From a virus (Duplodnaviria; Heunggongvirae; Uroviricota; Caudoviricetes), in IMG/VR virus record IMGVR_UViG_3300022910_000004: DNA of 64,000 nt; one strand, 5' to 3'. Each line of letters opens with the position of its first letter. Within the stretch, counting starts at the first letter, position 1. Shown here piece by piece: positions 2,131 through 48,560 of the stretch. The notes under the pieces are model-generated. The model saw only the letters and a program-made list of their open reading frames with translations. It searched no databases and had not been told where the DNA came from. Both the position numbers and the translations under genes were made by a program.

Positions 2131-2388
2131 GTGAGGCGGAAGTACATGAGTGAAGATCTAAAAGAATTTCAAGCAAAAATGCAAACTACATTAGAATGGG
2201 GCTCAAGTCCAACTATTGAAAATTTAAAGAGTTTGTCTGAAAAGCTGGGATATCCATTACAAGATATACCAACCCCAGTAGATACGAATGCAGTATTCAT
2301 GCATTTAGTGTCTATCCTTGCTGTTAAAATATCTACAGTAGAAAGCGAAGTGAAGTACTTAAGACGCCAATTAAGAAGAATTGGTTAA
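2131..2388 (+). CDS. hypothetical protein
   Basis: 85-aa ORF. Confidence 0.4.
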   Translation: MRRKYMSEDLKEFQAKMQTTLEWGSSPTIENLKSLSEKLGYPLQDIPTPVDTNAVFMHLVSILAVKISTVESEVKYLRRQLRRIG

Positions 2389-2618: not shown

Positions 2619-3110
2619 ATGAGTAAAGTGGTTTATGCACCAAATCCATCAAGCCATAAAGGGAATGGTATTAATGTATTTCTTGCCGGAAGTATTGATA
2701 TGGGTAAGGCTGAAGACTGGCAACCAGTAGTAGCCAATATCCTAGAACAACTGCAAGAAGTGGGTGAGATATACAACCCTAGAAGATTAGACTTTCAACC
2801 AGATGCAGTACAGTCGATTGATAATGCATATTTCACTCAGCAAGTGCTATGGGAACTAGATCATCTTGAAAAAGCTGATGTAGTATTTATGTACTTAGAT
2901 CCAGCGTCTAAAGCTCCTATATCCCTATTAGAACTTGGATTACTGGCCAGAAGTGATAAGCTGATAGTGTGCTGTCCAAAAGGCTTCTGGCGTAAAGGTA
3001 ATGTGGATGTACTGTGTAACAGAATGGGTATATGCGTACTCGATAAGATGGATACAGCCATAAAAGCTTTGTGCCATATAATTCACTGTAAATATCTTGG
3101 AATCTACTAA
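2619..3110 (+). CDS. nucleoside 2-deoxyribosyltransferase-like protein
   Basis: VFLAGSI near the N-terminus followed by a conserved W, typical of the NDT/Rcl family; GGAGAATAGA RBS before the ATG. Confidence 0.4.
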   Translation: MSKVVYAPNPSSHKGNGINVFLAGSIDMGKAEDWQPVVANILEQLQEVGEIYNPRRLDFQPDAVQSIDNAYFTQQVLWELDHLEKADVVFMYLDPASKAPISLLELGLLARSDKLIVCCPKGFWRKGNVDVLCNRMGICVLDKMDTAIKALCHIIHCKYLGIY

Positions 3111-3349
3111 TGAATAGATCAATGCGTAGACATCACAAACAAAGGATGAAACTAAAGTTCCGTAAAAGGAATAAGCTACACCATTATTGGGCTGATGGGG
3201 TTAAATCTGAAGGAATCTACTGCAAGACTAAATGTACTTGCTCTTGCTTTATGTGTGGTAATCCTAGGAAATGGGGTAAAGGTAGTAATACCAGAACCTT
3301 AACCAAAAGAGAAATCATAGCTAATGAACACCTGAAAGAAGAGAGATAA
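3110..3349 (+). CDS. small basic Cys-rich protein (possible zinc binding)
   Basis: CKTKCTCSCFMCGNPRKWGKG; Arg/Lys-rich N-terminus. Confidence 0.35.
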   Translation: MNRSMRRHHKQRMKLKFRKRNKLHHYWADGVKSEGIYCKTKCTCSCFMCGNPRKWGKGSNTRTLTKREIIANEHLKEER

Positions 3350-3424
3350 GATGCACATATTCCTCATATTTACTTTATTAGCATGTATTGGGGACTATAC
3401 GCATCTATGCTTAAGGGATAACTC

Positions 3425-3979
3425 CTATCCCTTATACCAATCCTTAACTAACTCCTGCCTATACGGATAATACCCAAGAAAGAAATACCTAGGATTAATA
3501 GCAAACATCCTATCCCCATCCTTATCCAATTCAATACCCACTTCCCTAATTAATCCGCTATCCTTCAAAGACTGTAAAGCAGAATAAACAGTAGTACGCC
3601 CACACCCAGTCCCTTTCAATATATCCCCTATACTGGTATACACTAAATTATTATACCCCACCTCTCTCCCTAAGTAGAAGAAGATACAAAGCTCTGAAGG
3701 GTGTACCTGCCTATCAATAGCTAAATCTAATAAACTTCCCCCCACCCATAGGTTATACCTCCTTTTACCAATCTTATAAGCCACAGCCTGATTAAACTTA
3801 ACCCTATTAGTAATGCTCATAATATCCAAGGGCTCTGAATACTCAACATCCCTAGTGATGCTGGTATAAGCCACTCTATCAATTAACTCCCCAGTCTCCT
3901 CATCTAGGCAAGTCTCCATCTGGTTACCATCCTCATCTGTGTAAACCGATAGTACACTAAGTCTATTCATATCCCTCAT
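3425..3979 (-). CDS. winged-helix DNA-binding protein, divergently oriented (candidate replication initiator or regulator)
   Basis: 184-aa ORF on the opposite strand; wHTH-like TGCGRTTVYSALQSLKDSGLI; located directly beside an iteron-containing non-coding region. Confidence 0.55.
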   Translation of the reverse strand: MRDMNRLSVLSVYTDEDGNQMETCLDEETGELIDRVAYTSITRDVEYSEPLDIMSITNRVKFNQAVAYKIGKRRYNLWVGGSLLDLAIDRQVHPSELCIFFYLGREVGYNNLVYTSIGDILKGTGCGRTTVYSALQSLKDSGLIREVGIELDKDGDRMFAINPRYFFLGYYPYRQELVKDWYKG

Positions 3980-3988
3980 TAACCCTCC

Positions 3989-4301
3989 AAAATATCATAG
4001 TGTTCGGTGGAGCGAACAACTCTTAAAATTCACAAATCAAAATATCTATATCTTTCAATAACTTGAAAAAGTGGCCTTTGTTTTGCTTATATAATAAAGC
4101 AACGCATTATTAGCACATGTAATTATCCCATTTTCCCCCCACAGAAATCAACTCATTTATATCTATTAAGAAATATTCTCAGATAGAAAATATCTATAGG
4201 AAGTACCTAAGTAGCGTCTCTCTGGGCATATCTATGGGCGAGGTGCTGAGCACTCCCCCATCGTGACATAAAAAATAATTCTACAATTCTAAAATATCAT
4301 A
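3989..4301. repeat. four direct copies of AAAATATC(A/T)ATA (iterons), plus partial ATCTATAGG copies out to 4640
   Basis: copies start at 3989, 4039, 4187 and 4291; spacings of 50, 148 and 104 bp are near-integral multiples of 10.4 bp; further partial copies at 4159, 4229 and 4631. Confidence 0.5.
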
Positions 4302-4783
4302 AAGGGCTTATTTAGTTTGGCTTAGTTATTGCTAGTGATTGAGCCTTTGATCATACTATAGTCTATACTTATGATAGTAAATCCTTAGATAAGTAATAAC
4401 TAATTGACAATAAACTAGATATAGTATTAGGGATACTAGATATAGGGCTTAACCAACCCCGAGGCTATAGATGAGCAACACATATGAGTGGTACTAGTAG
4501 ATAAGGCTCTATAGAGCGAGTAAATAGCTATAGGATAATAAGCTCTAGGCCTTGATAACACTAGTTTACAGCCATTTTAAGCTATCTGTATAAGACAGTA
4601 TTAGATTAGGTATTAATGAGCTATAAGACTATCTATAGGAGGTTTAAATAATGGTATCTTATGCTTATTCGACGGCATTACTGGCCTAGTGTGTAGATAG
4701 GTAACAAATAAGGGATATAATAGATAAATACTAAAGTATTTAATAAATAATCGAAAATAAATAGACATTTAGTGAAAATTAGC

Positions 4784-4811
4784 TTGCAAAGGGTAAAATA
4801 GGGCGTATAGT
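4784..4811 (+). promoter_or_regulatory. sigma70-like promoter candidate (TTGCAA-16-TATAGT)
   Basis: -35/-10 hexamers with 16-nt spacer at the right edge of the non-coding region, facing the downstream genes. Confidence 0.3.
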
Positions 4812-4878
4812 AACTACATAAGGTAGTTAATAACAGTAAGTAAACAGCAAGATAACCAGTAACAAGAGATAAGACATC

Positions 4879-5007
4879 ATGAAAAGATATTTATTTAGTT
4901 TGATGGTGATTGGTCTAGTAGCTCATGGGATAGGCTCAGTAGGGGCTAGTACAGTGACTAAGTACAATACCAACGTAGACGCTAAAATTGAACAAGCAAC
5001 CAAATAA
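4879..5007 (+). CDS. small secreted/membrane peptide (42 aa)
   Basis: MKRYLFSLMVIGLVAHGIGSVGAS... signal-peptide-like. Confidence 0.3.
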   Translation: MKRYLFSLMVIGLVAHGIGSVGASTVTKYNTNVDAKIEQATK

Positions 5008-5102
5008 GTAATAGGTGATTAAGATGACAGCATTAGTGATTATGACAGTATTGACTTTAGTTGTATTGGCTTCTATTGAAATAACGATCGAGGCTAAATA
5101 AG

Positions 5103-5447
5103 ATGACAACTTCAATTCAAGAGACAATCAAAGTTCTACAAGATCAAGCAGACAGTTGTATTTCTTTCCTTGCAAATCCTTGCCTATGTGATCAACCTTG
5201 TGTAGTGGGTCGTGATGGGCTTTGGATTAGTGATTTGGAAGTTGTAGACGGTAAAACAACAGGGAAGCATTCAATTACTAGTGACGCTACTAAAGCTCAA
5301 CGCTTTACAAGAGCTAACGCCGAAGTAATTGCAAACACTACACAAAACGGTAATGGCTTTTTTAAGGTTCAATCTAAAGCAATGGCTGTACAAGAATGTC
5401 TTGAAAGTACTAAATCAGCTCTATCAATGTTCGACAAAGTAATTTAG
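5103..5447 (+). CDS. hypothetical protein
   Basis: 114-aa ORF. Confidence 0.5.
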   Translation: MTTSIQETIKVLQDQADSCISFLANPCLCDQPCVVGRDGLWISDLEVVDGKTTGKHSITSDATKAQRFTRANAEVIANTTQNGNGFFKVQSKAMAVQECLESTKSALSMFDKVI

Positions 5448-9641: not shown

Positions 9642-9717
9642 GCGCTGTTAGTTTAATGGATAGAACAGGGGATTTCTAATCCCTCGGCGGCGGGTTCGAC
9701 TCCCCCACGGCGTACCA
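9642..9717 (+). tRNA. tRNA-Arg (anticodon UCU)
   Basis: cloverleaf folded by hand: acceptor GCGCTGT/ACGGCGT (two G-U pairs), D arm GTTT/GAAC, anticodon stem GGGGA/TCCCT with loop TTTCTAA (TCT at 9675-9677), T arm GCGGG-TTCGACT-CCCCC (one mismatch), discriminator A and encoded CCA. Confidence 0.8.
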
Positions 9718-11348: not shown

Positions 11349-11699
11349 GTGGATTTAGATACACTTATTAAATTAAAAGAAGTTTTATTGACACTTAAAG
11401 CAGGTCAAATTGGAGACAAATTTTTAGGTATTTGTGGCAATATCCCTAGTAATATTAAGGCTGAGTCATTAAAATATTTTTATTCTACTTGGGATAAATG
11501 GCCAGAATACTCTGGGTATATGGGATATCCTGTAAAGCATGGAGAACATTTACCTGTTAGTGCTTTCTTCTATGTTGAGGACTGTTGGGAAGGGGAATAT
11601 GGAGAAGCTAGATATCGTTTAGTTGATTGGTTACTTGAGCAAATAGATAAGGATTTACAAATCCCATCTAAAGATGCCTCTGAAGCTTTAATATATTAA
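11349..11699 (+). CDS. hypothetical protein
   Basis: GTG start after AGGAGG RBS. Confidence 0.5.
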   Translation: MDLDTLIKLKEVLLTLKAGQIGDKFLGICGNIPSNIKAESLKYFYSTWDKWPEYSGYMGYPVKHGEHLPVSAFFYVEDCWEGEYGEARYRLVDWLLEQIDKDLQIPSKDASEALIY

Positions 11700-11780
11700 G
11701 GTAATACCAAAGCTTAGACTAAACGTAAAATCGCCACAAAGCTTTCCTATGAGCTTTAAACACTATTATAAGGAGTACAC

Positions 11781-11981
11781 ATGCAATCGCCTTTATCAGT
11801 ATTTGCTTTATTCATTAAGCTTGTTATCACTTTCTTATTTTTTATGGCTATTGGTTATTTACTAACAGGCACCATAGAACCAAAAGATTGGAACACTATA
11901 ATGAATGTTGATATAACAATTTTATATTGTTTGTGTACTGTTTATATAATATTTTCACATAAGGAAACAAAATCTAAATAA
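11781..11981 (+). CDS. small membrane protein
   Basis: hydrophobic 66-aa ORF; AGGAG RBS. Confidence 0.4.
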   Translation: MQSPLSVFALFIKLVITFLFFMAIGYLLTGTIEPKDWNTIMNVDITILYCLCTVYIIFSHKETKSK

Positions 11982-12398
11982 TATGTGCTATACTGAATAT
12001 AGATTAGTCACTTAATGACTAGACTGGTTTATAAACAGTCTCGGATAGGAGTTTTCTGGGTAAACCTCTTTTGTACTATCTTAAAGTTCATAAAAGGCTC
12101 GAACAAACTTGGGGAAGTGGGACAAATGTCTCAGAGGTGACAAGGCTATGATGCTGACTAAAGCAGAAGCACCTCTCGGAATACAGGATTAGTATTGCTT
12201 GTATTCTATTCCGCACTTGAGATACAGTGTGCTACATGCAATGTAGAGAATTATACGGCTCCATTAGTATAGATTCTGAGAATTCTTCAATGGTTCCTCT
12301 AAGGCTAGTTTAATCTGGTATGAGGGGCTATAGCGGAAGTCTATTCAGAATTTACTCACCATTAGTATAGACTATAATTAATCCAGTCGGAGGTAAGA
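11982..12398 (+). other. 417-nt non-coding, hairpin-rich region upstream of an HNH endonuclease gene (candidate structured RNA / long leader)
   Basis: no ORF of 60 aa or more; multiple perfect hairpins (TAGTCA/TGACTA, GACTG/CAGTC, GAATACA/TGTATTC, CTACAT/ATGTAG); CCATTAGTATAGA repeated at 12261 and 12359. Confidence 0.3.
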
Positions 12399-12956
12399 GT
12401 GGCTACGTTAACCCTAAGTCAATTCAGTGATAAGTTATTCTCTGGATTCTATGGCAGACCCAAAGATCAATCTCTCATTCATCTAAGAAATAATTTCTTG
12501 GTTATGAAGGGTTCTGTTAATAAAAGTAAAGCTGAGTTAGTTAATAAATATATTGAGTCTTCAATAGAAAAGTCAGAGGATGTTTTGGAAACTAAACAAC
12601 AAAGCGCCCTAGAAAGCTCAGAATCGGATTTTGATCTATTGGTTGCTGGTAAGTTAAGCCAATTAAAATGCTCTGCTGAACGCCGTGGTAAAGAGTTTGA
12701 TTTGACGTTTAATGTAGTTAAGCGTTTAATGAAGCGGAAGACTTGTTATTACACAGGGCTTAAATTCCAAGCCTCTCCAAATCTACATCTAACTATTGAT
12801 CGTGTGGATTTTACGAAAGGGTATGTTATTGGGAATGTTGTAGCCTGTAGTAATTGGGCTAACCAAATGAAGAATCAATTAATCGAGCAAGAGGGTAGTC
12901 CTTTATTAGGTAATCCTAGACTGCTTAAAAGATTTCTTAATAAATTAGGAGAATAA
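12399..12956 (+). CDS. HNH-family (homing-type) endonuclease
   Basis: GTG start after GGAGGT; C-terminal CYYTG...LTIDRVD...GNVVACSNWANQMK HNH-like core. Confidence 0.5.
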   Translation: MATLTLSQFSDKLFSGFYGRPKDQSLIHLRNNFLVMKGSVNKSKAELVNKYIESSIEKSEDVLETKQQSALESSESDFDLLVAGKLSQLKCSAERRGKEFDLTFNVVKRLMKRKTCYYTGLKFQASPNLHLTIDRVDFTKGYVIGNVVACSNWANQMKNQLIEQEGSPLLGNPRLLKRFLNKLGE

Positions 12957-28201: not shown

Positions 28202-29896
28202 ATTAGCTGTATAGAAAAGATAAAGCATGAAGTAGATCATTGTACTTCTGCGAAAGGATTACAGGTCTTTTATGATGATGGTAGAGGTAAATACACTGGT
28301 TATTGTTTCTCTTGTGCAGCCAAAGGATTAGAGGCGTACGTAGAAAACCCTTATGACGAAGGGTATGAGCCAGAACCACCAAAGAAAAAGACTAAGGAAG
28401 AAATTGATGCAGAGATTCGGGAGATTAAAGAGTTAAAACACCCTGAATTTACTTATAGAGGGATTCCTAAAGAATACTTTAAAAAGGCAGGCGTAAGATT
28501 AGCTTATAGTGAGTTTGATGGATTAACTCCAAATTCTTTTAACTTTCCTTACTCTTTAGGGGGAAATCTAAAAGGTTACAAAACAATTTTACTGAATAAA
28601 AAATTGCATTGGTCGGTAGGAGAAATTGTTGGTTGTGATCTTTTTAACTGGGAAGTTGCGAAGAAGAGAGGAACCAAGCGTTTATATGTGACGGAAGGGG
28701 AATGGGATTGTCTTTCCTTGGAGTACATGCTAGACCATACGTTTGGGCAGAATGGAAAGTATAGACATGCTGTTGTCTCTATTCCTCATGGAGCCGGTAG
28801 TGCCGCCCCTACCTTAGGGAGAATGCGTAAGGAAATAGAGGAACTGTTTGATGAAATTGTTTTAGTATTTGACAATGATGAAGCTGGGGTTAATGCGGTT
28901 AAAGAAGTTCAAAAAGTATTGCCAAATGTTCTAGAAGCTCCACATGTCACTGGTGTTAAGGACGCTAATGAGGCATTACAGTCTGGCGATTATAAAAGCT
29001 TTATTGAATTTGTTAAATGGAAAGCTCGTAAACCTCCAATACAAGGTGTGGTTACAGTTAGTCAGGCAATGGAAAGGGGAATTACCAAACCTGAGTCTGG
29101 TTTATCTCATCCTTGGGAAAAATTATCGACCGTAATGTATGGTCAAAGATTTGGGGAGGCTACTTGTGTTGCTGGATGTGTAGGCGGTGGTAAAACAGCC
29201 ATAGCTCATGAATCTAGTGCTCACAATGCAAATTTCCATAAATTGCCAAGCTTCGTCGCTTTGCTGGAAGAAGATAATATCAAAACCTGTTGGAACATTG
29301 CAGCTAAGATAGATTCTATTCCTTATAACAGACCGGAAGTCTTTGAGAAAAACAAAGAACAATACTATGAGACTATGAAGAGCTTGGAAGATAAGATCTT
29401 TATGTGGAATAGTCAAGGGAATTCTAGTTACAGATTTGATTTACCAGAAATACTGAATGCTATTCGATTTAATAATGCAGAGTATGGATGCAAATTTGCT
29501 TATATCGATAACATGACCAGATTAGTGGATACGATGCCAACAGCAGAAGCTAATGAGTTTATCAACAGATACTCAAGTGAAATTGCAAATTTGGCTAGTG
29601 AATTAGATATGCATATTTATGTGCTATCACATTTGAATCCTCCTAAATTTGGTCGAAGTCATGAAGAGGGTGGAGAGGTATTGCCAGCTCAACTTACAGG
29701 AAGTAGGGGTATCATGAGATCGTTCTCTAACATTATAGGATTTGAGAGAAATAAATTTGGAGAGACCAAACACAATTCTTTCTTGTCTCTTATAAAAAAT
29801 AGAGATTATGGTAATGAGCAAAAAATTAAATCTCAGTACAACCCTGACACAGGAAGATTAAAGGAATATGAATGGGAAGGAGAAACTTTATGGTAG
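28202..29896 (+). CDS. bifunctional primase-helicase (T7 gp4-like); N-terminal zinc-binding domain encoded upstream of the first ATG
   Basis: open frame from stop at 28196-28198; HC(x17)CFSC zinc-finger at 28230-28320; Toprim VTEGEWD and VFDNDEAG; Walker A AGCVGGGKTA; no ATG/GTG/TTG before 28604. Confidence 0.8.
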   Translation: MSCIEKIKHEVDHCTSAKGLQVFYDDGRGKYTGYCFSCAAKGLEAYVENPYDEGYEPEPPKKKTKEEIDAEIREIKELKHPEFTYRGIPKEYFKKAGVRLAYSEFDGLTPNSFNFPYSLGGNLKGYKTILLNKKLHWSVGEIVGCDLFNWEVAKKRGTKRLYVTEGEWDCLSLEYMLDHTFGQNGKYRHAVVSIPHGAGSAAPTLGRMRKEIEELFDEIVLVFDNDEAGVNAVKEVQKVLPNVLEAPHVTGVKDANEALQSGDYKSFIEFVKWKARKPPIQGVVTVSQAMERGITKPESGLSHPWEKLSTVMYGQRFGEATCVAGCVGGGKTAIAHESSAHNANFHKLPSFVALLEEDNIKTCWNIAAKIDSIPYNRPEVFEKNKEQYYETMKSLEDKIFMWNSQGNSSYRFDLPEILNAIRFNNAEYGCKFAYIDNMTRLVDTMPTAEANEFINRYSSEIANLASELDMHIYVLSHLNPPKFGRSHEEGGEVLPAQLTGSRGIMRSFSNIIGFERNKFGETKHNSFLSLIKNRDYGNEQKIKSQYNPDTGRLKEYEWEGETLW

Positions 29897-29905
29897 AGGA
29901 ACACT

Positions 29906-32038
29906 TTGAAAAAGATAACAAACTGGGCTAATGCTTCTGTAGCAGACTTAGAATCGGATGGTTTACTGGATGAAGCCACCAAGATCCATGTTTTATCATT
30001 TAAACTATCTGATAAGACAATTAAAAGTATTGAGGGAGATAATAAAGAGCGGCTGATTGCCTTCTTCAAATATCATATAGATAATAATATTCCAATTGTT
30101 ATGCATAATGGTATTTGCTTCGATGTGCCTTTAGCAGAAGAAATCTTAGGAATTGATTTATCTAACCTAATGGTTATTGATACTTTAGCAGTGAGTTGGT
30201 ATCTCAATATTGAACGTCAGAAACATGGTTTAGATTCGTTCTTAGAGGACTATGGAATTGCCAAACCTAAAATTGACGATTGGGAAAATCTTACTTACGA
30301 AGAGTATAAATTTAGATGTGAAACAGACGTTGAGATTAACTACGAACTTTGGGAGGATTTAAAAGATCGTTTAATCGATATGTATGAAAGAGTGAAGCTT
30401 GCTGTTGATATTGGTGATGTAGACGGTAAGCGAGTGGAGGGAGAAGTTTGTCATATCGATCAGTACAAACAGTCAAGTTCTGTTGAAGATTACATTGATA
30501 GGATTTTACAATTTCTTTGCCACAAAATGGATATAAGTCGTCTGAAGGAAAAGACACGATTCAAGGCTGATGAGGAAGCAATTGATGCAGGTATTGCTGA
30601 GCTAGAAGGATTTATTGATGCTGCTGCAAAAGAGCTTGAGAGTGTAATGCCTCAAGTGCCCAAATACACTAAGAAAAACAAGCCAAAAGACTGTTACAAG
30701 AAGAATGGTGAGTTGAGTGTATCAGGATCTAACTGGGAAGCAGCACTAGCTAAGATTGGTCAGAAGGATGATGATGGAAATGAACTTGTCATTGTGGTCA
30801 GTGACATTGAATTGAAAGTTCTTAACAAGTATGAGCCCCCAAATATTAATGGTAGTCAACAAATTAAAGACTTCCTATTTTCTAAAGGCTGGGTGCCAGA
30901 AACATTTAAGTACGACATTAAGGATAGCGATAAGACAGCTTGGGTTGAAAGTGGTTATAAAAAGCATCTTAAACCTGTGCCAAGGAAGATCCCACAAATT
31001 AACAGGGATGGTGACGATGGTAAGGAGCTGTGCCCTTCTGTATTAAGGCTAGCAGAGGTTGTGCCAGAGATTATGGCCTATGCCAAGTACAGTGTGATAA
31101 AGCATCGCTATGGCGTGCTGAAGGGTTTTAAAAGGGATTTGTCAGAGGATGGATTTCTAGTAGCAAGAAATGGAGGATTTACCAATACGCTGAGGGAAAA
31201 GCATAGGGAATTGGTTAATTTAGTATCAGTAAGTAAACCCTTCGGAAAATATATCCGTGGAAGTTTAATTTCTGAGAAAGGGAAGATTTTGTGTGGTAGT
31301 GATATGAGCAGTCTGGAAGACAGAATTAAACATAATTTCATGATACCTCATGACCCTGAGTATGTTGAGATTATGTCGGTCAAAGGTTATGACCCTCATT
31401 TGCAGCTAGCAGTACTTGCTGGATTACTTTCTCCCGCAGAGGAGGCTCGATACAAAGAGCTTAAGAAAAGGGATGATTTATCTCCAGAGGAGAAAGCAGA
31501 ATTCACAAAGTTAGGGATTATTAGACAGACAGGTAAAGGTGGAAATTATGCTTGCCAGTATGGAAGTGGCGCAGAGACTTTATCAAGACAATCTAAGATT
31601 CCATTAGCGACAGCTAAAAAGGTTGTAGAAGGTTACAAACAAATGAATTGGTCAATCGAAGCTATTGCTGATGATCAGTGTGTGATAACAGATGCTAGGG
31701 GACTTAAATGGTTAATTAATCCTATCAATGGTTTCTGTTACAACATTCGTAGTAACAAAGATAGATTCTCTACTCTATGTCAAGGAACAGGAAGTTTCAT
31801 GTTTGATATGTGGGTGGACAGATTCTTAGAAAAAATGAAAGAGAAATGGTCTGTAAAAAGATTATCAGGACAGTTTCATGATGAATTAGTGGTTTCATTT
31901 AGAGACACAGAAGAAAACAAGCTCGCTGTAAAAGAGATGTTAAATGCTGCTGTGGAAGAAGTGAATACAACTTTCATGCTGAGAAAGAAACTTGGTTGTG
32001 ATGTACAATTTGGTACACGATATTCAGAGATTCACTAA
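29906..32038 (+). CDS. family A DNA polymerase with N-terminal 3'-5' exonuclease (TTG start)
   Basis: Exo DLESDGL and MHNGICFD; motif A CGSDMSSLEDRI, motif B KGGNYACQYGSG, motif C QFHDELV. Confidence 0.85.
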   Translation: MKKITNWANASVADLESDGLLDEATKIHVLSFKLSDKTIKSIEGDNKERLIAFFKYHIDNNIPIVMHNGICFDVPLAEEILGIDLSNLMVIDTLAVSWYLNIERQKHGLDSFLEDYGIAKPKIDDWENLTYEEYKFRCETDVEINYELWEDLKDRLIDMYERVKLAVDIGDVDGKRVEGEVCHIDQYKQSSSVEDYIDRILQFLCHKMDISRLKEKTRFKADEEAIDAGIAELEGFIDAAAKELESVMPQVPKYTKKNKPKDCYKKNGELSVSGSNWEAALAKIGQKDDDGNELVIVVSDIELKVLNKYEPPNINGSQQIKDFLFSKGWVPETFKYDIKDSDKTAWVESGYKKHLKPVPRKIPQINRDGDDGKELCPSVLRLAEVVPEIMAYAKYSVIKHRYGVLKGFKRDLSEDGFLVARNGGFTNTLREKHRELVNLVSVSKPFGKYIRGSLISEKGKILCGSDMSSLEDRIKHNFMIPHDPEYVEIMSVKGYDPHLQLAVLAGLLSPAEEARYKELKKRDDLSPEEKAEFTKLGIIRQTGKGGNYACQYGSGAETLSRQSKIPLATAKKVVEGYKQMNWSIEAIADDQCVITDARGLKWLINPINGFCYNIRSNKDRFSTLCQGTGSFMFDMWVDRFLEKMKEKWSVKRLSGQFHDELVVSFRDTEENKLAVKEMLNAAVEEVNTTFMLRKKLGCDVQFGTRYSEIH

Positions 32039-48208: not shown

Positions 48209-48381
48209 ATATTGACAGATTAACATTAGGAGTTCTACTAATATTATCTAGTACTTGGGGAGGGAGTTATCTAACCTCTCTCATATACAAAACTTGGTTA
48301 TTATTTCCTGTGATATTTACTTCTGCAATGATATTTATTGTAGGTCTTATTATTTGTATAACTAAAGAGATTAAATGGTGA
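48205..48381 (+). CDS. small membrane protein (58 aa)
   Basis: two hydrophobic segments; ATGA overlap. Confidence 0.3.
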   Translation: MNIDRLTLGVLLILSSTWGGSYLTSLIYKTWLLFPVIFTSAMIFIVGLIICITKEIKW

Positions 48382-48560
48382 AAGTAGATAAAAATAAAGT
48401 ATTAGTAAAGAAAGTTGCAATGGCGATGAAATATGTTAAGCAAGGATGTCCCTTAAAGGATTTTCTGGAACATGATGAAATCGAGGAAGCATTAAAATTG
48501 CTGGTGGTAACGCACAAGTCTTTAGAAATTTTACAGGGTAAATCTTAATTGGAGATAGAT

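Follow-up and report, generated by a model that had tools for sequence, protein, structure and literature searches.

A candidate RepL/pHW126-like initiator gene and its putative origin/operator region in a large uncultured tailed phage

The DNA analyzed here (the window) is a stretch of 64,000 nucleotides from the IMG/VR virus record IMGVR_UViG_3300022910_000004, assigned to Caudoviricetes. Its longest stretch free of open reading frames (ORFs), at positions 3980-4878, lies upstream of a leftward gene for a 184-aa protein with a winged helix-turn-helix (wHTH) domain. This gene may well encode an initiator of the RepL/pHW126-like type, and the adjacent ~450-bp core (~4000-4460) would then be its cis-acting origin/operator region. 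The basis of this reading is homology of the protein, conservation, copy number, and orientation of short sites in the core, and linkage of the core to the gene; from these sequence data we infer binding, autoregulation, and origin firing by the protein. Both parts of the locus had been noticed in an earlier inspection of the sequence (the original prediction) and are confirmed. The minus-strand wHTH gene occupies 3425-3979, and the region described as the largest non-coding stretch (3980-4880) is indeed the longest without an ORF of at least 60 aa (956 nt, the runner-up in the window having 417 nt).

The protein begins with a three-stranded beta unit carrying a D..TGE motif, followed by helices; the wHTH is located at approximately residues 94-161, and the C-terminal motif is DR..(V/I)NP.YFF.G.YP.R.....W. 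The AlphaFold2 (AF2) model, with a predicted local distance difference test score of 91, contains a single wHTH. Homologs are scarce: a set of 1.8 billion proteins yielded 34 representatives. In cultured phages, tblastn with four family members detected no homolog, and there is no DNA match to cultured phages either; GTDB bacterial genomes likewise yielded none. The decisive link to plasmid Rep proteins is provided by a distant family member, P0033, that matches the one ORF carried by enterobacterial plasmids of 1.0-2.0 kb. Comparison by hhalign of the family alignment (A1, 31 members) with the single ORF of a plasmid of 1,459 bp yields 96.7% (E 4e-10), and comparison with an alignment of six Rep-like proteins from small plasmids (A3, including that of plasmid L070) yields 97.8% (E 7e-13) over 107 columns corresponding to window residues 69-181. 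The latter match covers the wHTH, the wing, and then a shared NP.(Y/F)..G motif; the global alignment of A1 and A3 reaches ~98% and, under permissive settings, is colinear up to the N-terminal TGE motif. By these profile comparisons, the window protein is a remote homolog of the experimentally characterized pIGRK/pHW126-type Rep proteins, the identity between plasmid Rep and the window protein being ~19%.

A search of the protein against replication initiator families, proposed as a check of the original prediction, had a mixed outcome: the family profile reveals the remote homology to plasmid Rep, whereas the window protein itself stays under the Pfam thresholds for RepL or any other family. 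Its RepL (PF05732) score is 14.2 bits (E 0.032) with a gathering cutoff of 20.3; the TrmB score is 19.4 with a cutoff of 25.6, and the MarR_2 score is 14.5 with a cutoff of 27. However, 10 of the 31 family members match RepL (E <=0.1), and one of them, P0033, is above the cutoff (30.6 bits vs 20.3). Because of these matches, the family is RepL-related as judged by sequence, while the window protein itself is outside RepL by the Pfam rule. Rep_3 is matched in Pfam neither by the window protein nor by the family members, and profile matches of the window protein to PDB entries span only ~35 HTH residues with E 1e-3 or worse. Replication initiators account for 11 of the 13 PHROG families matched by family members. 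Structural neighbors in BFVD include entries annotated as RepL or replication protein, some of them from crAss-like phages.

The non-coding region is rich in short related words. CTATAG-type words had been described as plentiful, and CTATAG indeed occurs six times inside the region versus 13 times across the other 63 kb (~31-fold enrichment). TAGATA is enriched ~11-fold relative to the rest of the window, and six of the 25 window copies of TAGATAT fall in the region. Four clean copies of a 12-mer had also been reported, starting at 3989, 4039, 4187, and 4291. The 8-mer AAAATATC is found at all four starts (4 of its 16 copies in the window; shuffle mean 6.5), but the longer word as originally written, AAAATATCWATA, is matched only at 4039 and 4187; at 3989 and 4291 the sequence is AAAATATCATA, shorter by one base. 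The exact 12-mer TATAGATATTTT has two copies in 64 kb, both at this locus. A similar frequency of the words elsewhere, which would have spoken against the prediction, is not seen: they are enriched here, and the exact 12-mer is confined to the locus. Three additional same-strand (minus) sites, at 4156-4166, 4170-4180, and 4226-4236, bring the total to seven dispersed sites of 11-12 bp each, with 14-104 bp between neighbors. A reported pair of CTAGATATAG words is real as well, although it starts at 4415 and 4436 and not at 4425 and 4446, 10 nt away. No site words are present within the wHTH gene (3425-3979). Because the sites are restricted to this locus in 64 kb, the protein is unlikely to be a genome-wide regulator. 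One copy with a single mismatch, TGTAGATATTTT, is located at 2326-2337 (minus strand) within a plus-strand ORF, ~1.1 kb past the 3' end of the wHTH gene, maybe by chance.

Loci of metagenomic relatives were recovered at 66% (L002, from a 95-kb contig), 53%, 45%, 44%, 40%, 38%, 36%, and 26% (L067) protein identity. Wherever the recovered sequence extends far enough, 0.8-1.4 kb of ORF-free DNA precedes the gene. The non-coding region is kept both where the flanking genes are antiparallel (the window, L002, L057, and L067) and where the upstream genes are co-oriented (L064, with a non-coding region of 975 nt and no divergent operon). Since the orientation of flanking genes varies while the region is kept, the non-coding region and the gene travel together as a cassette, which is still intact at 26% protein identity in L067. 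Conservation is concentrated near the gene. Identity to L002 is 74% in the block at -150..-330, compared to 54% at third codon positions of the wHTH gene and 51% in the distal non-coding part. The blocks persisting in order and orientation across eight loci are TTGGTTAAGCC, a duplicated TAGCAaTAACTA box, the distal site TATGATATTTTAGAATT, and GGTGCTnAGCACCtCtCC-TAGATATGG, and then, toward the gene, the proximal site cTTATAGATATTTTcT with invariant AGATATTT, TTCTGGAGGGGAATTGG, a sigma-70 promoter, and a leader block TATTATATAAAGC..CACTTTTT. In 10 upstream regions, GATATTT occurs 23 times in the orientation of the gene and once in reverse, with ~2 copies expected per strand. The word GGTTAA[GA]C has no copy in the other 63 kb of the window and is found once or twice upstream of the gene in most relatives with long enough upstream sequence. 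A DNA profile trained on the relatives only has a single nhmmer match in the window, at 4059-4324 (E 6e-29). The core profile also finds two loci outside the training set, L060 and L061, and weakly L067.

The gene and the features of the core are as follows.

3425..3979, minus strand: 184-aa Rep-like winged-helix protein (ORF, AF2 model, family alignment A1)
3989..3999, minus strand: site TATGATATTTT, adjoining the ribosome-binding site GGAGG (within 3977-3990); window lineage only
4039..4050, minus strand: exact 12-mer TATAGATATTTT within the 5' leader; degenerate in L002
4061..4102, minus strand: conserved leader block (alignment of 8 loci)
4061-4074, minus strand: ..CCACTTTTTCAAGT, part of the leader block
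4083-4102, minus strand: TTGCTT-TATTATAT-AAGCAA hairpin/palindrome, part of the leader block
4122..4151, minus strand: predicted sigma-70-type promoter of the wHTH gene, TTGATT, 18 nt, TG-n-GATAAT (promoter scan, alignments)
4128-4146, minus strand: conserved G-rich box TTCTGTGGGGGGAAAATGG, overlapped by the predicted promoter
4156-4166, minus strand: site ATAGATATAAA, directly upstream of the predicted -35
4170-4180, minus strand: site GAGAATATTTC, upstream of the -35; aligned to CAGGATATTTTC of L002 and L005
4187..4198, minus strand: proximal conserved site TATAGATATTTT; AGATATTT invariant in 8 of 8 aligned loci
4226-4236, minus strand: site CATAGATATGC (alignment and coordinates)
4236-4259, minus strand: palindrome-like conserved block GGGGGAGTGCTCAGCACCTCGCCC, preceding CATAGATATGC; consensus of relatives GGTGCTnAGCACCtCtCC(t/c)(a/g)TAGATATGG
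4267-4291, minus strand: AT-rich tract TAGAATTGTAGAATTATTTTTTATG after the distal site; low duplex stability
4291-4301, minus strand: distal conserved site TATGATATTTT (alignments)
4317-4337, minus strand: box TAG(C/T)AaTAACTA, copy CACTAGCAATAACTAAGCCAA; also duplicated in L002 and L057
4392-4406, minus strand: box TAG(C/T)AaTAACTA, copy CAATTAGTTATTACT; also duplicated in L002 and L057
4414-4424 and 4435-4445, plus strand: two copies of ACTAGATATAG, 21 bp apart; window lineage only
4446..4456, minus strand: box TTGGTTAAGCC, outer edge of the conserved core

In the relatives, the counterpart of the window leader block is TTTGCTATATTATATAAAGC...CACTTTTTAG, and TTTACT-N17-TATAAT is found immediately downstream of the G-rich box. 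The proximal site of the window forms a partial palindrome, ATAGA-TATTT-TCTAT, ~35 bp upstream of the predicted -35. Other sites abut the -35 or are located in the leader, and none overlaps the predicted -35 or -10 of the wHTH gene promoter. In the ACTAGATATAG pair, TAGATAT is oriented opposite to the proximal sites. Three other candidate elements were rejected. A second upstream promoter at GATATTTTAGAAT was ruled out by manual comparison of the sequences, with no conserved -35 or TG extension. Reading TTGCTTTA (within 4083-4102) as a T4 MotA box was ruled out by the lack of a -10 element at the required distance. An integration host factor site has a perfect match in L002 only and is not conserved.

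Based on these data, the following sequence of events can be proposed. The gene would be transcribed leftward from its own sigma-70-type promoter (4122-4151), and the protein would bind the same-orientation (T)ATAGATATTT(T) sites, which flank the promoter and reach ~170 bp further upstream. Occupancy near the promoter and in the leader would cause autoregulation of rep, as in the plasmid homologs. A nucleoprotein complex on the upstream sites and the neighboring conserved boxes might melt or nick adjacent DNA of low stability, and the T7-like primase-helicase and PolA encoded at 28604-32038 could then start replication on the opened DNA. The region includes three of the 22 60-bp segments that are least stable in the 64 kb, and low-stability tracts also occur elsewhere. 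Host DnaA may assist in some lineages, such as L063. Upstream of the wHTH homolog of this locus, at 1071-1150, three exact DnaA boxes (TTATCCACA, TTATACACA, TTATCCACA) share one orientation and are clustered within ~80 bp; these are the only exact boxes in the 7.3 kb of the locus (shuffle p ~1e-4).

The closest analogy is provided by plasmids pHW126, pIGRK, and pIGMS31. Their Rep is likewise a small protein in which the N-terminus varies and the single wHTH is conserved, and it is homologous to the window protein at the profile-profile level. In published experiments, Rep proteins of the pHW126 family bound iterons, a conserved region (CR), and the operator preceding rep; they also acted in trans to activate the origin and repressed transcription from their own promoter (PMC6854812; bioRxiv 10.1101/2022.12.05.519187). 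These proteins are described as distant relatives of pSN2 RepL (bioRxiv 10.1101/2022.12.05.519187). The plasmid order of elements upstream of rep is conserved boxes, direct repeats, and promoter/operator, and the phage cis elements are likewise upstream of the gene. However, the plasmid iterons are four tandem repeats of 20 bp separated by 2-nt spacers, and the plasmid promoter is covered by inverted repeats of 8-9 bp, whereas the phage sites are dispersed. The plasmid replicon is also a molecule of 1-3 kb, as opposed to a genome of the ~130-kb class with its own primase-helicase and PolA. In plasmid L070 (2,345 bp, MobV), there are 4-5 tandem repeats of 22 bp, and inverted repeats cover the promoter, in agreement with the published pIGRK REP module (PMC6854812). 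Because tandem iterons and the conserved DNA boxes of the family are absent, the phage locus is, at the level of sequence, not a strict member of the plasmid REP-module family.

These boxes were seen in seven small plasmids of 1.3-2.9 kb (L069, L070, and L075-L079). All seven have a AAGATACAGAAGG box at ~-120 and TAGTTATC..GATAACT inverted repeats over the wHTH gene promoter, and tandem 22-bp iterons are found in L070 only. In the annotations, their wHTH gene figures as hypothetical, as MarR, or even as "lipoprotein." Neither AAGATACAGAAGG nor TAGTTATC..GATAACT is present in the phage core. A TAGATA core common to the phage sites and the plasmid CR was rejected as probably a chance match, being found in two of the seven plasmids.

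Other systems resemble the locus in part. RepL proteins, known from pSN2-type staphylococcal plasmids and including crAssphage repL, are also small wHTH proteins of ~150-190 aa, and some members of the window family pass the RepL threshold, the window protein being under it. Little is known about how RepL itself works. The original prediction held that such an architecture had not been described for this phage type. This is so for the phage group in a literature search, but there is a precedent in crAssphage, where an origin has been predicted just upstream of one repL and coverage peaks there (PMC10983915); the origin was predicted by Ori-Finder, and the account of this prediction reports no iteron analysis (PMC10983915). 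Iteron-containing theta origins (pPS10, R6K gamma, F, and P1 oriR) combine, in order, optional DnaA boxes, AT-rich DNA, direct repeats, an autoregulated rep promoter, and rep. The same order is found in L063 and, minus the DnaA boxes, in the window. They differ in having initiators with two winged-helix domains, to which there is no match here, and contiguous iterons of 17-22 bp. Thus, with a single wHTH, no Rep_3 match, no contiguous iterons, and no exact DnaA box in the window region, the locus does not belong to the Rep_3 class. Initiators similar to lambda O and DnaD (HTH_36, Phage_rep_O) share the wHTH subtype and have weak sub-threshold matches from several family members, two of the 31 in the case of Phage_rep_O. 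In the lambda O type, however, the wHTH is N-terminal and the origin lies within the gene, while here the wHTH is C-terminal and the gene contains no sites, so that the locus is not of this type either.

Several observations weigh against an initiator gene with its origin. Helical phasing of the sites, which was part of the original prediction, is not significant by the Rayleigh test: for the four sites initially listed p is ~0.06 at 10.4-10.5 bp per turn and 0.39 at 10.6, for all seven same-strand sites it is ~0.3, and for the conserved distal-to-proximal spacing across relatives it is ~0.85. The sites are short, irregularly spaced, and non-tandem compared to the four 20-bp iterons of the plasmid homologs, and no tandem repeat array was detected in the region by Tandem Repeats Finder and a repeat finder. 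The GC skew, another suggested check, does not invert at the locus. The cumulative curve climbs from 1 to ~49 kb and turns at the switch of the gene strand, the dip at 3-4 kb being the reversed gene itself; because the skew follows the gene strand, it is uninformative about the origin. No DnaA box above background is present in the window. The protein scores below every Pfam cutoff. The site counts are non-independent because many loci are close relatives. Finally, homology cannot separate an initiator from a regulator, because plasmid Rep proteins also act as transcription factors. The initial choice between an initiator-dependent origin and an autoregulated control locus nevertheless has the best support of the readings considered, through the Rep homology, the conserved, strictly oriented multi-copy word in ~10 divergent relatives, and the 12-mer unique to the locus; the phasing, the skew, and the Pfam scores lend it no support.

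The regulatory half of this choice, taken alone, would make the protein an autoregulated winged-helix repressor or activator that times its own and perhaps neighboring early genes, the sites being operators with no origin. We consider this explanation, the main rival, rather unlikely, although it agrees with the identity of the sub-threshold matches in Pfam and PDB, which are regulators of the MarR, TrmB, and CRP types, with the partly palindromic proximal site, and with the presence of sites next to the predicted promoter, within the leader, and by the ribosome-binding site. The plasmid homologs are proven autorepressors (PMC6854812), and the divergent rightward genes create a layout like that of a phage genetic switch. 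However, the candidate rightward promoters (4694-4811) are at least 250-450 bp away from the sites, and L064 retains its long non-coding region in the absence of a divergent operon. The lack of further site copies in 64 kb leaves no regulon, and a regulator of itself only has no evident purpose. A core that extends over ~450 bp and combines five or more kinds of conserved box exceeds by far the needs of an operator, and the DnaA-box cluster of L063 and the replication proteins among PHROG neighbors also do not fit a regulator.

Two explanations dispense with protein binding. An ordinary AT-rich early-promoter/terminator spacer between divergent units, in which TA- and TAG-rich words are compositional and stop codons are tolerated, is very improbable for the locus as a whole. 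It is compatible with the distal half, which is as diverged as neutral sites (51% vs 54%) and contains sigma-70-like promoters at the chance rate (8 found vs 8.7 expected), and with the CTATAG enrichment being limited to two lineages, the window and L057. It is at odds with the selective conservation of the proximal core, with the 23:1 strand bias of the sites and their positions conserved down to 26-38% protein identity, and with the exact 12-mer unique to the locus. Hence a spacer is largely refuted for 4000-4460 and plausible for 4457-4878. A non-coding RNA or a long structured leader, with the words as RNA motifs or promoter elements, would explain conserved blocks with variable spacers and strict orientation; segments able to form hairpins, such as GGTGCTnAGCACC and GGGGTTAAACCCC, at times by means of G-T pairs on the gene-sense strand, also fit an RNA, and a -10-like hexamer is present within GATATTTTAGAAT. 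Yet the upstream promoter would have no conserved -35 or extended -10, and the putative stems are not kept among the near-identical L002, L003, and L004. Rfam 15 has no match in 3300-5200, be it at the gathering threshold or at E 10, the whole window yielding one tRNA only. Sliding minimum free energy z-scores are never under ~-2.5 on either strand, and RNAalifold gives no consensus structure on either strand (E of 0). An RNA is therefore highly improbable. A TubR-type centromere or a TerS/pac locus was also rejected, since no TubZ or terminase is nearby and the arrangement of sites differs from those systems.

Beyond the core, the far side of the non-coding region contains the following features.

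4457..4878, no strand: poorly conserved distal half with CTATAG-rich words; 51% identity to L002
4694-4721, plus strand: candidate rightward sigma-70 promoter TAGATA-N16-TATAAT, serving genes from 4879 (promoter scan)
4784-4811, plus strand: candidate rightward sigma-70 promoter TTGCAA-N16-TATAGT, serving genes from 4879 (promoter scan)
4879-5007, plus strand: 42-aa signal-peptide-like ORF MKRYLFSLMVIGL..., bordering the far side of the non-coding region
5025-5101: small 25-aa ORF (ORF list)

The distal half probably merely holds the rightward promoters. Loci L058 and L059 have an identical homolog and share the proximal ~250 nt upstream of it but are unrelated further out, and many short contigs end within the non-coding region; these observations point to a distal part that is hypervariable, recombines, or is broken up during assembly. 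At its contig end (1-110), L063 has four tandem copies of a 27-nt unit GTAGCGGAGCTTGCAGCTYGGTNGCCA, the probable cause of an assembly break. The two tiny ORFs noticed initially are present. The 42-aa ORF is kept in L002 as MKRYIFSLIVLGL... (L002 6949-7077), and small ORFs starting with MKRY or MKK hold the matching position at the far end of the non-coding region in the remoter relatives L063 and L067. Because of these similar ORFs at the same position, the 42-aa ORF may belong to the cassette.

The source phage is a large tailed phage with ~36% G+C. Its window encodes the T7-like primase-helicase (28604-29896) and PolA (29906-32038), as well as ribonucleotide reductase, NAMPT, and baseplate/tail proteins. 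PolA is at most 55% identical to that of Vibrio and Shewanella myoviruses of ~130-140 kb, and Vibrio phage 1.170.O, the nearest cultured relative, is differently organized as seen by synteny comparison. Near-identical metagenomic contigs are IMG/VR UViG_3300005577_000040 and one ENA contig. From position 16 to ~48 kb, the 184-aa ORF is the sole leftward gene, all others being rightward. The gene strand then switches at ~48.2-49.4 kb, where the cumulative GC skew also turns; this boundary separates rightward replication and metabolism genes from leftward tail and baseplate genes and includes a 340-nt ORF-free gap (48209-48548). The wHTH gene converges with ORF 3110-3349, and its stop codon there is spanned by an inverted repeat with perfect 8-bp arms, AAGGGATA-ACTCC-TATCCCTT (3413-3433). 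This repeat is not a canonical terminator, because no T-run follows on either strand. The early region contains a tRNA-Arg(TCT) gene (9642-9717, plus strand), and the early-gene block of L002 includes a 340-aa gene (11467-12489) with a match to Pfam Gad1 (PF25705).

The origins and initiators of most large uncultured phages are not known. If the cassette is the origin, it would provide a testable origin/initiator pair for a whole clade and link the poorly understood RepL/pHW126 Rep class of 1-3 kb plasmids to genomes of the ~130-kb class. The profile of 4059-4324 would then be a portable DNA signature for finding such origins in metagenomes, and the locus would bear on whether "virulent-looking" phages carry plasmid-style replicons. 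An unlikely but far-reaching extension of the initiator interpretation is that a whole clade of myovirus-like phages, all large, uncultured, and virulent in appearance, shares a plasmid-type mini-replicon as a conserved and self-contained cassette made up of a Rep gene and its upstream origin. This mini-replicon would serve either as a lytic origin, fired by site-specific nicking or melting and feeding the T7-like primase-helicase, or for low-copy plasmid maintenance in a carrier state or as a phage-plasmid, as was recently argued for crAssphage. In that case, short oriented sites in a dispersed arrangement would constitute a new origin grammar for this class of Rep.

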